From the IMG/VR virus record IMGVR_UViG_3300027734_000042: DNA of 64,000 nucleotides; one strand, given 5' to 3'. Shown piece after piece: positions 31,211 through 59,423 of the stretch. The notes below the pieces were generated by a model, which saw only the letters and a list, made by a program, of their open reading frames with translations, ran no database searches and was not told the origin of the DNA. Every line of letters begins with the position of its first letter. Positions within the stretch are counted from its first letter, which is position 1. The position numbers and the translations under genes were made by a program. This DNA comes from a virus.

Positions 31211-31813
31211 TTAATCGTCGAATCCGCCGAATCTTTTTAATATGTTAGCACCTTTACCTAGATCCTCACCCTTTAAGCTAGGCGGTATTTCAAAGTTTTT
31301 AACTATCTCTGGATTCTCTTCCATTTTTCTTCTGACAACGTCTTTGTAATTTTCGTTTCCTAAAAGTTCTTCCTCTGACATAGGAACTCCTTGCTCTCTT
31401 AAGATATACTTAATCAAGAATCCCATTTTGAAAAGATAATCTTCCGGAGTCATACAAGCTCTTCTAAGATCAGTATTTAATCTAGGAAATTCTGAAGATT
31501 TAGAAGGTCCTACAACCACTCTAATACTTCCGTTGTGCATAATGTTATATTGAGGATATCCCGGTTTAGGTGATTTCATAGAATCATGTTTAAATGCTAT
31601 GTTACCTAAACGATCTTTAAAATATCTTTGCTCTTCAGTACCTTGTGTTTCGATACCAATTGGGTTTTCTGCGATCATTTCTGTCCAACCCATTGCAGTC
31701 ATATCTTTATAAGCTTCTGATTCTCTAATTGGTTTAAAACTAAGAACTGGACATTTTTTAGTTCTTCTAACCTCTTGTATTTTTTTGAACTCTGGATAGT
31801 TTTTAATACTCAT
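31211..31813 (-). CDS. hypothetical protein with N-terminal leader and C-terminal GxxLLxRxG tag
   Basis: MSIKNYPEF...KGANILKRFGGFDD; distant paralog of 47855..48754. Confidence 0.75.
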   Translation of the reverse strand: MSIKNYPEFKKIQEVRRTKKCPVLSFKPIRESEAYKDMTAMGWTEMIAENPIGIETQGTEEQRYFKDRLGNIAFKHDSMKSPKPGYPQYNIMHNGSIRVVVGPSKSSEFPRLNTDLRRACMTPEDYLFKMGFLIKYILREQGVPMSEEELLGNENYKDVVRRKMEENPEIVKNFEIPPSLKGEDLGKGANILKRFGGFDD

Positions 31814-32024
31814 TTTTCCTTTGTTTTTCTTATATATATTCTTTTTATTCGAGGACTCCGAGAATTTTTCAATAATGGTGAAATTTTTTCACTTATTAAC
31901 AGTATATTTAATGTCCTCTGTAGAAAAACAGCTTATAAACTGTTTTTCTGCTTTCCTATATATAGAAAAAACCGGTTCCTAGGAATCGGTTTTTTTATTC
32001 AAGTTTTTTCTATAATATTGCGAT

Positions 32025-32576
32025 ATGTTAAAAGTACACTTTGAAAATTTTAATCACTTCTTGGAGATAACAAATCCACCCAGTAGTGTAACTGATCGTC
32101 TAGAGAAGCTTAAGACTCTTAGAGAAAGACCTGACTATCATCCTGAGCCCAATACTTTTGAGCACATACGTATAGTGACTGAGAGATTGATGCTAACTAA
32201 TGACATAGATCTTATATTCGCAGGATGTATGCACGATCTATTTAAGCTAGATACATTAGCAATAAATCCTAAAACCGGATTTCCTACTTGCCCTGGACAC
32301 GATACGCAAGTAGCGAGCTTTATACGAAGTAATAAAGAGGTACAGGACTGGATGAACAGATACGAAGCTGATATTGAAACAGTTGCAGATCTTTGTAAGG
32401 ATCATATGAGATTTCATCAATTTGATAGAATGAAAGTATCCAAGCAGGAAGAATTCAAATCAAGACCACATTGGGGTAAATTAATATACCTAGGTGCTGC
32501 AGATAATATGCTGGTTGAATTCGATATAGATAATTTAGAAAAAAGCTGGAAATGGAAAGAAAGAAATACGCTATAA
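32025..32576 (+). CDS. HD-domain phosphohydrolase
   Basis: YHPE..TFEH, MHDLFK, GHD, DHM, AD motifs. Confidence 0.8.
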   Translation: MLKVHFENFNHFLEITNPPSSVTDRLEKLKTLRERPDYHPEPNTFEHIRIVTERLMLTNDIDLIFAGCMHDLFKLDTLAINPKTGFPTCPGHDTQVASFIRSNKEVQDWMNRYEADIETVADLCKDHMRFHQFDRMKVSKQEEFKSRPHWGKLIYLGAADNMLVEFDIDNLEKSWKWKERNTL

Positions 32577-33670
32577 GGACACTTAACAAATATGTTAACG
32601 AGGGAAGGATAGAAAGAAATCCTCACCCGACTCTTCCTATATCCATCTATAATTATTCAAGGGAAACTCAATTTAAGAATGATTGGGACGAAGTAACATT
32701 GTCTATGAGAGGAACAATAATAGACGATAAAGGATATGTTGTTGCCTCTGCTTTCAGTAAGTTTTTTAATTACGAGGAAGTTGCTGATCAGGCTCCGACT
32801 AAAGGAGATTATGTTTATGTGCAAGAAAAGATGGACGGATCCCTAGGTATACTCTTTTATTACCAGGATGAATGGCATCTTGCAACTAAAGGATCTTTTA
32901 CTTCAGATCAGGCGAAGAGAGGAATGGAAATACTAAGAAAAAACTATTCTGTTTTTGATCAGGTCTTCTTCAAGGAGGTAACCTATATAGTTGAAATAAT
33001 TTATCCGGATAACAGAATTGTAGTTGACTACAAAAATGAAGAGAAAATAGTTTTCCTAAGCACTTCTGTTAATGGGGAAGAACAACACTGGACAACATCT
33101 TTATCATTATTTAAAGGCAGCGGTATAAAAAAATCCGATATAGTTAAATGTGAGCAGCACTTCTCTTTCGGTGAAGATCTTTATAAATCTTTAAAGGATA
33201 AAAACACAAAAAACGAGGAGGGATTTATTCTTAGATTTCAACCTGGTAATTTTAGAATGAAAATAAAATTCGAAGAATATGTTAGATTGCATAGGCTTCT
33301 TACTAATTTTTCTAATGTTGATATATGGGAAGCATTAAAGGATGGAAGAGATATAAATGTTCTTCTTGAAAGAGTACCTGACGAATTCGATGCTTGGGTT
33401 AGAAAAACAATAACAGATCTTAGATATCACAAATATGCTATAGAGGAAAGAGCTGGAAAGATTCACTACTATTTCAGATACGGAAAATACAGTGATCGTG
33501 AGATCGAGCCTACTAAGAAAGAATTTGCACAGCACTTAGAATTCTGCAAAACTGAACCTTCTATAAAGGCTATCTGTTTTTCTATATGGGACGGTAAGAA
33601 CTATGATGATATAGTTTGGAAGATGATCCGGCCTAAATATCAAAAGCCATTCTGGAATAGAGAGGAGTAG
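32552..33670 (+). CDS. T4 Rnl1-like RNA ligase
   Basis: KFFNY, motif I EKMDGSLG, EGFIL, KIKF..Y. Confidence 0.88.
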   Translation: MERKKYAIRTLNKYVNEGRIERNPHPTLPISIYNYSRETQFKNDWDEVTLSMRGTIIDDKGYVVASAFSKFFNYEEVADQAPTKGDYVYVQEKMDGSLGILFYYQDEWHLATKGSFTSDQAKRGMEILRKNYSVFDQVFFKEVTYIVEIIYPDNRIVVDYKNEEKIVFLSTSVNGEEQHWTTSLSLFKGSGIKKSDIVKCEQHFSFGEDLYKSLKDKNTKNEEGFILRFQPGNFRMKIKFEEYVRLHRLLTNFSNVDIWEALKDGRDINVLLERVPDEFDAWVRKTITDLRYHKYAIEERAGKIHYYFRYGKYSDREIEPTKKEFAQHLEFCKTEPSIKAICFSIWDGKNYDDIVWKMIRPKYQKPFWNREE

Positions 33671-33710
33671 TATTTGTAACTTCTTGGAATTCAATGTCTA
33701 TAATATACGA

Positions 33711-57959: not shown

Positions 57960-58040
57960 GGAGCCTAAGAGAAATCTTAGGCTTTTTTGTGTGCGGAGAT
58001 TTTTATAGCAGCCGCGGATTATCTGCTGAGGAACCCCCGG
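57960..58040 (+). repeat. terminator plus conserved hairpin element, copy B
   Basis: GTGTGCGGAGATTTTTATAGCAGCCGCGGATTATCTGCTGAGGAACCCCC. Confidence 0.85.
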
Positions 58041-58137
58041 ATACTGGAAAATCCAGAAATGTTTAGAAAATTCTAAGGAATCCTTTTTTTCTAGAAAGAT
58101 CCTACTCTATATTAGCTATGTAACAAAAAAAAGAATT

Positions 58138-58929
58138 ATGGCACTATTTAGTAAAGAACAGAACGAAGCTATCGAATTTCTTATGGATGGTATTTCTCAA
58201 CAAGGTGGTTGGGAATACGACGAAGAAACAGACCTCGTAAATGTGTGGGGTAATTTCAGTTATACAGGAGAGGGTCTCAAAGATTTTAAGGGTGTTAAAT
58301 TTGGATACGTAAACGGAGATTTCGATTGTTCAAATAACGAGCTCACAAGTCTTGAAGGAGCTCCAAGAAGCGTTGAAGGGCTTTTCAATTGTGCGAATAA
58401 CAAGCTCACAAGTCTTGAAGGATCTCCAAGGAAGGTAGATAATTTCAATTGCTCTGGTAATTTGTTAACTAGTTTGGAGGGAGGACCAGATAGGGTTTCC
58501 ATAGGAAAATATAAATGTTCTAAAAATAATCTTACAAGTCTAAAAGGATTACCTACAGGGGAAACGAACTACGGTCTTAAAATAGATTGCTCAAGTAACA
58601 AGTTAAGAAGCCTTGAAACTGTGGGTGATACAGAAAGGATTTCGGAATTTATTTGTCGTAAAAATGAAATAATAAGCTTGGATGGAGCTCCTTTAATAAA
58701 AGCTTATCATGGCGTTGAAGATTTTTCTTACCAAGGGAATAAGGGTATATCCGGTAAGACTCTAGAGTTAATTCACTTTACCATGTCAAGTAATAATGTT
58801 TCTTATCTTGAAGCTTTAGGAATGCTCAAAACCCAGATAAAAGCGGGAGATTTAAAAAAGCTAATGTCGGGATACGAGAATGGTGATTCTGTATTAAAAG
58901 GAGCTTCTCTTCTAGGAAGATTTTCTTAG
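58138..58929 (+). CDS. leucine-rich repeat protein with C-terminal tag
   Basis: F.CS.N.LTSLEG.P repeats; ends KGASLLGRFS. Confidence 0.85.
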   Translation: MALFSKEQNEAIEFLMDGISQQGGWEYDEETDLVNVWGNFSYTGEGLKDFKGVKFGYVNGDFDCSNNELTSLEGAPRSVEGLFNCANNKLTSLEGSPRKVDNFNCSGNLLTSLEGGPDRVSIGKYKCSKNNLTSLKGLPTGETNYGLKIDCSSNKLRSLETVGDTERISEFICRKNEIISLDGAPLIKAYHGVEDFSYQGNKGISGKTLELIHFTMSSNNVSYLEALGMLKTQIKAGDLKKLMSGYENGDSVLKGASLLGRFS

Positions 58930-58985
58930 AATCATTTTTTACTTTGTAGAAAATTCTATATATTAGCTAAGTAAACCAATTAGAC

Positions 58986-59423
58986 ATGGATAAGAATATT
59001 TTCAAAGTAAAGGACAATCTCTATGTTCAGGGTAACAAGGTTATTAGCTATGTAACTGTTGTTGCTATTATAGAGGGAGATAGTATAATAGAGCTTGGTA
59101 AATTTTCAAGGACCACGACTAAGCATATCTCTAAGGTTGCTTTGTTAATGAACAAGAAAGTAGTTCCTACTACAGAAAAGAGAAAGGAGGATTTTTATAA
59201 GTTCCAGATGGGTGTTAAGACTTCTCATCATAATTGTATTGGCTTGAAAGCTTCAAACTTGATTTTGGAATCGATCGGAAAAGGTATTCCTTATGATGTC
59301 ACACTTGCTACTTTGAAAGGAAAGATCACTAAGTGGGATTGGGAACTATTGAATAAGGAAGGTATTGATGAGAAGTTATTGAAAGGAGGTTCTTTATTAA
59401 CTAGAGTAGGAATTTATGACTAA
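58986..59423 (+). CDS. hypothetical early protein with C-terminal tag
   Basis: SY.T.VA...FSRTTTKH N-terminal domain; ends KGGSLLTRVGIYD. Confidence 0.75.
   Translation: MDKNIFKVKDNLYVQGNKVISYVTVVAIIEGDSIIELGKFSRTTTKHISKVALLMNKKVVPTTEKRKEDFYKFQMGVKTSHHNCIGLKASNLILESIGKGIPYDVTLATLKGKITKWDWELLNKEGIDEKLLKGGSLLTRVGIYD

Follow-up and report, generated by a model that had tools for sequence, protein, structure and literature searches.

Short terminal peptides that serve as addresses are known from the internal proteins of phage T4, from encapsulin cargo and from MinD-like membrane binders. In T4, the peptide is a capsid-targeting sequence (CTS) that is N-terminal and is removed after a glutamate by gp21. 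The MinD tag is C-terminal and follows an acidic linker. In encapsulins, the peptide addresses unrelated cargo to one protein receptor, an HK97-fold shell (PMC8346489). A single MinD tag is weak alone; it works in the ATP dimer (PMC7857489), and it has been used as a tandem pair for tethering (PMC5471200). Here we examine a 64,000-nucleotide stretch of viral DNA, the IMG/VR record IMGVR_UViG_3300027734_000042 (hereafter the window), in which nine open reading frames (ORFs) encode otherwise different proteins with the same decapeptide, the tag, at or near the C-terminus. A preliminary description, made from the sequence alone, had proposed a modular system of cargo plus tag. Is such a tag real, and what might read it?

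All nine ORFs are present at the coordinates and on the strands that had been reported, and their C-termini read as described (Table 1). Each matches the pattern G-x-x-[LI]-L-x-R-[FLV]-[GSD], followed by zero to eight residues before the stop; Gly1, Leu5 and Arg7 of this pattern are invariant in the window. When the relaxed expression G..[LIVM][LIVM].[RK][LFVIM][GSD] was applied to the 191 six-frame ORFs of at least 50 residues, it matched exactly these nine and no internal copy. Proteome composition predicts 0.135 matches to the core G..[LI]L.R[FLV] anywhere and 0.007 within ten residues of a C-terminus, where nine were observed; 200 per-protein shuffles returned a mean of 0.13 core matches and never more than one. 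An unbiased approach was also applied to a relative, G001 (IMG/VR UViG_3300032307_000764; 248 kb; ~85% nucleotide identity to the window): all-against-all comparison of the last 16 residues of its 321 proteins returned the tag as the dominant recurrent C-terminal motif. G001 carries eight orthologous tags, two outside the range of the window (195206 and 220058) and one degenerate copy, KASSLLGRSGMF; Leu5 and Arg7 are kept in every one, the degenerate copy included. The final residues of the proteins are G, GI, GIF, S, DS and the like, so the distance to the stop is variable, with up to 12 residues past position 9 in relatives. We conclude that the tag is real and strictly C-terminal.

Table 1. 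Tags in the window and two neighbouring genes; carriers are named in the text by the first coordinate of their ORF.
Feature	Coordinates	Strand	Details
Tag KGANILKRFG	31226..31255	-	ORF 31211-31813, 200 aa; leader-like MSIKNYPEFKKIQE; probable founder family
Tag RGSSLLSRFD	34692..34721	-	ORF 34686-35525, 279 aa; GATATATA immediately upstream
Tag KGGNLLNRLG	41890..41919	-	ORF 41881-42429, 182 aa; leader MKNIKSFHLFEN; GATATATA upstream
Tag KGYGLLRRLG	44949..44978	-	ORF 44922-45653, 243 aa; no leader
Tag PGYRLLGRLG	46246..46275	-	ORF 46228-46761, 177 aa; leader MLNRIKSFNQFNKLNE; GATATATA upstream
Tag KGSSILNRFG	46782..46811	-	ORF 46776-47843, 355 aa; leader MKHLLEFKSYLNE
Tag QGAKILGRLG	47864..47893	-	ORF 47855-48754, 299 aa; leader MKKLITFGEFSRINE; GATATATA upstream
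Tag KGASLLGRFS	58897..58926	+	Early ORF 58138-58929, 263 aa; leucine-rich repeat (LRR) protein
Tag KGGSLLTRVG	59382..59411	+	Early ORF 58986-59423, 145 aa; DUF8033-like
Membrane protein	30588..31193	-	201 aa; N-terminal transmembrane helix and alpha/beta domain (GAF-like by eye); directly downstream of 31211 family
Asp/Asn beta-hydroxylase-like gene (PF05118)	44403..44963	+	Convergent with tagged 44922-45653 (-), 3' ends overlapping

The window is part of an uncultivated jumbo phage of low G+C content (about 34%). The source is a T4-like jumbo phage of Bacteroidota; the evidence on phage type consists of a prohead protease of the gp21 type and a capsid protein of the Gp23 family (both in G001), a distant T4-like topoisomerase II, the late-promoter-like GATATATA immediately 5' of many genes, and a second, longer promoter type that is described below. 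Megablast and tblastn searches of 50,697 phage records yielded no close relative among isolated phages; the best isolate matches there, at ~28% identity, were to T4-like topoisomerases only.

The codons for Gly, Leu and Arg vary across the nine copies, and the G001 orthologues differ from the window copies by synonymous changes inside the tag. Selection therefore acts on the peptide, and the codon differences rule out a conserved DNA element in its place. No other stretch is kept as well as the tag across metagenomic orthologues: of the ten families examined, five conserve it at 100%, and conservation in the tag versus the rest of the protein is 1.00 versus 0.81 in the 46776 family (12 unique sequences) and 1.00 versus 0.82 in the 34686 family. 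Could the tag nonetheless be the end of a shared domain? All-against-all BLASTP of the nine proteins gave a single weak pair, 44922/46776 (22% identity, E 8e-4). Alignment of the family profiles by hhalign covered 14–18 columns ending in the tag; the longest alignment, of 58138 with 58986, reached 44 columns at a probability of 6%. The nine are thus not full-length paralogues, and a shared C-terminal domain is likewise ruled out, as just the tag and a few linker residues align. The shared helical module of about 50 residues that had been described in subsets of the carriers is therefore unsupported, but the broader idea of different bodies with the same C-terminal tag is borne out by these non-homologous carriers. 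The tag is a selected peptide and not part of a shared domain.

In the AlphaFold2 model of 46776, the body has a predicted local distance difference test score (pLDDT) of 75, and the leader (residues 1–14) and the tag (residues 347–355) lie below 50; the tag follows four helices and contains a short two-turn helix at residues 348–352. The tag is thus modelled as either disordered or a two-turn helix. The linker preceding it is usually acidic, and inspection of the linkers revealed no consistent prohead-protease site ([LI]-x-E).

A clear T4 CTS-like leader (M-K-x-I-K-x-F-x-x-F-x-E) is found on four carriers: 41881, 46228, 46776 and 47855. The N-termini of 31211 and 34686 are leader-like. GATATATA stands immediately 5' of 34686, 41881, 46228 and 47855, and 44922 lies within the late operon. 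The remaining two carriers, 58138 and 58986, have no leader and are early, as had been claimed: upstream of both is a conserved promoter of another type, TTTG...TAnnTT(T/A)G, which is longer than GATATATA and which we take to be the Bacteroidota sigma-A pattern. The survey of leaders and promoters thus agrees with the view that the tag spans late, leader-bearing genes as well as early ones. Because most carriers combine a CTS-like leader with a late promoter, the leader-bearing late carriers are presumably packaged and injected. Most leader-bearing proteins have no tag.

Two further features of the window touch on leaders and promoters. An adenylate kinase (9631-10224, +) begins with a CTS-like leader, MKIKNFKEF; either packaging extends to metabolic enzymes, or capsid targeting is not the leader's only role. 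Within 55500-60300 (+), a highly conserved promoter block of ~45 nucleotides (AATCATTTTTTT...TTTGTAGAAAATTC[CT]ATATATT[AT]GC) precedes many small plus-strand genes, both early tagged genes included.

Little can be said about the bodies of the carriers. Searches of Pfam and PHROG returned no family except for the LRR protein, and no recognisable catalytic domain in any of the nine. The AlphaFold2 model of 46776 matched no PDB fold, the ESM Atlas returned nothing for 47855, and PDB sequence profiles returned nothing for 58986. The body of 58138 resembles the LRR domains of InlJ/SspH/IpaH, and its gene is missing from G001. Orthologues in other lineages end in GSNIIKRFTS and GTRLISRFGGFNR (34686) or in GGSMLRRFGSF and GYGVMRRFI (44922).

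We surveyed the distribution of the tag in 38 records, namely 35 IMG/VR records with a capsid protein 66–88% identical, plus G001–G003. Tags occur in three of them (G001, G004 and G006); the near-complete G010, G020 and G021 have none, and a profile match in G008 proved to be an antisense chance match. The 31211 family comprises 59 sequence clusters of 42–100% identity, and all 59 have the tag near the C-terminus. The consensus of this C-terminus is K-G-[AS]-[SA]-h-L-K-R-F-[GN]-x-F, and an acidic tail often comes after it. Lys6, Arg7 and Phe8 are present in 57, 56 and 58 of the 59 clusters, respectively, while the residues at position 4 include M, I, L, A, T, V and F. The loci around 31211 orthologues hold further tagged members of the 34686, 44922, 46776 and 47855 families, together with new bodies. 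The tag is present, then, in the clade of the window and in related lineages that carry the 31211 family. This family is much older than the other carriers, and it is probably the founder from which the tag spread onto other bodies.

Searches for further tagged families returned nothing new. A word-index search gave only orthologues of the known carrier families, and an exhaustive search with hidden Markov models gave only the phage's own families and one repetitive spurious ORF (P0066); a match to the tag alone cannot reach significance in such databases, so these searches do not show absence elsewhere. Pfam and PHROGs contain no family for the tag, and literature searched by topic yielded no description of such a C-terminal phage tag, in keeping with the earlier view that it is not a described family.

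How tightly is the tag constrained? In the clade of the window, Arg7 is never Lys, though AGA to AAA is a single transition, and Leu5 is never Ile, Val or Phe, though these are reachable by single-base changes. Positions 4 and 5 tend to agree within a genome, both across non-homologous carriers and in orthologue pairs. They read [LI]L in 12 of 12 tags of the window and G001 and in three of three in lineage L160, M[LM] in all four tags of G006 and L158 (plus one orphan orthologue, P0033), and II in both tags of G004; in L162, position 5 is Ile in three of four. A permutation test over all genomes gave p = 5e-5 for this agreement, which is real but partial. Codons differ within genomes, and therefore gene conversion does not explain it.

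We favour the reading in which the tag docks its carriers onto a single, common protein partner over the reading that it is a MinD-like membrane helix, and we assign the docking reading a probability of about one half. On this account, the tag would be a short linear motif for docking that can be transferred between proteins, [K]-G-x-x-[LIM]-L-x-R-[FLV]-[G], an "address tag" on the flexible, mostly acidic linker of at least nine (window) to about eleven (G001) non-homologous accessory proteins. Having probably arisen in the 31211 family and been copied onto other bodies, it would be read in all carriers by one common partner. A protein pocket gripping Leu5, Arg7 and Phe/Leu8 would be a likelier partner than a lipid bilayer: a specific pocket is favoured by the identity-level conservation, the invariant Arg, the acceptance of Ala and Thr at position 4, the modest amphipathicity and the genome-wise agreement. 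Because the carriers are either leader-bearing and late or early, their common site of action is most plausibly a cell that has just been infected, in which the partner would bring proteins delivered by the virion together in one place with those made early. Candidates for this partner include host proteins and phage proteins specific to the lineage, for example the membrane-anchored product of 30588 encoded nearby.

Several observations weigh against the docking reading. No partner was found by phylogenetic profile among phage-encoded candidates; ClpP, the DUF2201 vWA protein and DnaJ were rejected, as their presence does not track the tags. Positions 4 and 5 are mixed in L159 (IL, VM) and L163 (MM, LI), the permutation p is only 0.036 without the clade of the window, and the lineages are related, so that the counts are not independent events. 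No column of the 30588 protein tracks tag class over eight lineages. Packaging is something we infer from the leader, which the adenylate kinase at 9631 bears as well. Finally, the founder tag, K-G-A-S-M-L-K-R-F-G-A-F, is very close in sequence to KGFLKRLFGG of MinD, and its hydrophobic residues fall at i, i+1, i+4 and i+7, as those of an in-plane membrane helix would.

The last points belong to an alternative that we regard as possible, if somewhat unlikely: the tag might be a short in-plane amphipathic helix of the MinD type, tethering its carriers to the host inner membrane with no protein receptor. Like the MinD tag, it is C-terminal after an acidic linker; a short helix is predicted at residues 348–352 of 46776, and the founder family is nearly always followed by the gene for a membrane protein (30588). 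The resemblance to E. coli MinD (KGFLKRLFGG; PMC5471200) that had been pointed out in the preliminary description is real, above all in the founder consensus. The HeliQuest-type D of the tags, 0.7–1.5 (0.72–1.48, median 1.07), falls inside the "possible lipid-binding" range. However, other C-termini of the same proteome have a median D of 0.72 and a 90th percentile of 1.56, and MinD tags reach ~1.5–1.7; the median of the tags is only slightly above that of other C-termini, their D and hydrophobic moment (0.18–0.55) are unexceptional in this proteome and below those of MinD, and the amphipathicity of the helix is only moderate. Just three large hydrophobic residues precede Gly9, and one MinD tag is weak on its own (PMC7857489, PMC5471200). 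A lipid target would not be expected to hold Arg7 and Leu5 against substitutions within single-base reach in the clade of the window, or to produce lineage-wise agreement at positions 4 and 5, and the acceptance of Ala and Thr at position 4 and the acidic tail after many founder tags also speak against insertion into a membrane. A membrane destination is therefore possible but not the best fit.

Other readers of the tag have been considered. That it is a proteostasis handle, a degron or an adaptor tether recognised either by host ClpX/ClpA, in combination with the phage ClpPs, or by DnaK and the phage DnaJ, strikes us as quite unlikely. Such a handle might time the removal of injected and early proteins, or the bodies might deliver host targets for degradation or refolding. 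The phage does encode ClpP (26864-27430), a second ClpP in G001, a transfer-messenger RNA (tmRNA) and a full-length DnaJ; no catalytic domain can be recognised in any carrier, and one of them is an LRR binder. Known ligands of the ClpX N-domain and clients of DnaK/DnaJ are flexible, hydrophobic-basic peptides, and the tag is likewise flexible, terminal and hydrophobic-basic. Yet it is unlike the LAA-type end of the phage's own tmRNA tag (...EEAEMLLAA, by ARAGORN). Three tag-less relatives (G014, G020 and G021) have ClpP, no copy was found on the tagged contigs G004 and G006, and DnaJ is shared with the tag-less G002 and G021. Host hubs are also very conserved, a poor fit with lineage-specific variants of the tag, and a degron on late, packaging-bound proteins would be wasteful. 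Very unlikely, in our estimation, is a second capsid address, by which the tag would bind the inner surface of the gp23-like shell, the portal or the core and load or retain cargo after removal of the N-terminal leader. In its favour, the majority of carriers combine a CTS-like leader with a late promoter, the phage has the gp21-type protease and gp23-type capsid protein, and Family 1 encapsulin peptides are short and C-terminal, with an abundance of G, S, L and basic residues (consensus SDGSLGIGSLKRS; PMC8346489). But the two early carriers have no leader, most leader-bearing proteins have no tag, and no structural protein, protease or scaffold is tagged. Moreover, tag-less phages share the head module, both among the IMG/VR relatives (capsid protein 66–74% identical) and in G002 (~40% identity across shared proteins), and the encapsulin pocket uses an N-terminal helix that is absent from most other HK97-fold capsid proteins (PMC8346489). 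We attach the least credence, next to none, to the idea that the tag is a site for a modifying enzyme, either the adjacent Asp/Asn-hydroxylase-like oxygenase or a leader-bearing zinc peptidase. The hydroxylase gene is convergent and overlapping with the 44922 family in at least three lineages and, among 21 related records, was found only in the tag-bearing G001; the tag also has an invariant Arg and frequently Asn. This reading is purely contextual: the enzyme is associated with one carrier family only, G006 is tagged yet has no hydroxylase on its contig, and the tag offers no invariant residue, Arg excepted, that is typical of the substrates of this enzyme family.

The product of 30588 is a candidate membrane-anchored receptor. 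The pair of 31211 and 30588 is conserved in eight of nine loci; five aligned lineages share at least 74% identity in the 30588 protein, which, in the 21 related records, occurs only in the tag-bearing G001 and G006. Its transmembrane helix has a Kyte-Doolittle 19-residue mean above 2.0. The AlphaFold2 model reached a pLDDT of only 50, and comparison with Pfam and PDB sequence profiles gave no match. Covariation did not support 30588 as the receptor: two columns looked promising at five sequences and failed at eight. It is unlikely, though conceivable, that the phage makes a dedicated hub for which the tag is the ligand, 30588 being one candidate, and that as infection begins this hub gathers a changing set of injected and early effectors into one assembly at the inner membrane. 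To join, a new effector would need only to gain the ten-residue tag, and tag and hub would co-evolve in each lineage. The docking and membrane readings could merge if the 30588 membrane protein were the receptor.

The genomic setting of the tagged genes is of interest in its own right. The tagged-gene region is nearly wholly unshared with more distant relatives; the tagged ORFans occupy a hypervariable island, and a Tad3-like gene sits in the corresponding island of relatives. The tagged ORFans are therefore good candidates for new anti-defence functions. Adjoining them is a leader-bearing HExxH protein (HELTH; 48770-49489, -), and amid them lies an untagged gene (45661-46212, -) whose L158 orthologue has a weak Prim-Pol match in Pfam. 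The late operon that runs on into the tagged genes is headed by five tandem paralogues (49486-52106, -) of ~20-residue LRR-like repeats (L-x-S-L-x-x-L-P-x-G-V-x-F-N-N), which have no leader and share a conserved C-terminus of their own, ...K-R-L-L-N-x-M-I-x-K-G-V-F-E-R. Another short C-terminal motif may exist: a leader-bearing protein of the structural region of G001 (30327-30998, -) ends in ...RFDNFFG, and the 690-residue G006 orthologue of 39430 ends in ...NSFFG.

The ClpP gene has a T4-like TATAAATA just 5' and is followed, 12 nucleotides on, by a 494-nucleotide tmRNA (together 26864-27936). In G001, a further ClpP of divergent sequence is encoded (229936-230508) but no Clp-type unfoldase; such an unfoldase was rejected as the partner, being absent from G001 and present in the tag-less G002 and G003. 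DnaJ (16280-17332, +) is a full-length type I protein with a J domain, a CXXCXGXG zinc finger and a C-terminal domain, and is also found in tag-less relatives. Immediately 5' of the window lies a module of a DUF2201_N metallopeptidase, a DUF2201 vWA protein and a MoxR-like AAA+ protein (G001 105005-108313), and G001 172721-177068 encodes a CobS/CobT-like AAA+ protein plus two vWA proteins.

If the tag is a docking peptide, it marks host-takeover or counter-defence proteins that act at one place, and it offers a ten-residue handle to their common target. It would then illustrate how phages can recruit new effectors, namely by appending a short tag, and would serve in Bacteroidota as a portable tag for localisation.

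How does the tag compare with known terminal peptides? Fixed-carboxylate ligands, such as PDZ ligands and HbYX, occupy the last three to five residues of a protein and use its free carboxylate; zero to eight residues follow the phage motif. The tails of AAA+ adaptors and degrons (ssrA LAA, the SspB ClpX-binding tail) are, like the tag, flexible terminal peptides by which diverse proteins reach one hub. Unlike ssrA-like degrons, the tag has no LAA-type end and no fixed position, its distance from the C-terminus being variable, and ClpP does not track it. The tag may resemble the SspB tail or the lambda O N-terminus. The ClpP-docking IGF-like tripeptide, the beta-clamp motif and nascent-chain arrest peptides were set aside, as their invariant positions do not fit.

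Closer to hand is the T4 CTS of IPI-III and Alt, which is also a short terminal peptide common to unrelated proteins of a T4-like phage; indeed, the tag co-occurs with a CTS-like leader on the same proteins. The CTS is recognised by its N-terminal place and the [LI]-x-E site of gp21, and it is the carriers' separate leaders that fit this description; the tag, by contrast, is C-terminal and without Glu, occurs also on leaderless early proteins and is missing from most leader proteins. Encapsulin Family 1 peptides resemble the tag in that they are short and flexible, stand mostly at the C-terminus and contain many G, S, L and basic residues. They differ in motif (consensus SDGSLGIGSLKRS) and in the adjacent shell gene. 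The phage has no encapsulin-type shell but a Gp23-family phage capsid protein, some of its carriers are early, and relatives with the same capsid have no tag.

The nearest likeness in sequence is to the membrane-targeting sequence of MinD, which shares with the tag an extreme C-terminal location, bounding Gly residues, the core h-L-K/x-R-h-(F)-G and a short predicted helix. Sequences of the MinD type stand at the extreme C-terminus after a flexible linker; likewise, the tag lies zero to eight residues from the stop and, in the model of 46776, has low pLDDT after the last helices. Like the phage tag, the MinD sequence is portable between proteins (PMC5471200). The phage tag differs in that two small or polar residues come after its first Gly, its large hydrophobic residues are fewer and its amphipathicity is lower. 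In a MinD-type sequence, character rather than identity is expected to be conserved, K/R and L/I/F/M being interchangeable, whereas Leu5 and Arg7 of the tag are fixed in the window and G001 (in the founder family, R7 in 56/59 and F8 in 58/59) and its variants are genome-specific. MinD is a single ATPase, membrane-bound in its dimeric form (PMC7857489), whereas the tag is borne by many unrelated phage proteins. What appears to be new here, within the literature searched, is a C-terminal tag that is common to a dozen unrelated accessory proteins of a jumbo phage and that spans the packaged and the early classes.

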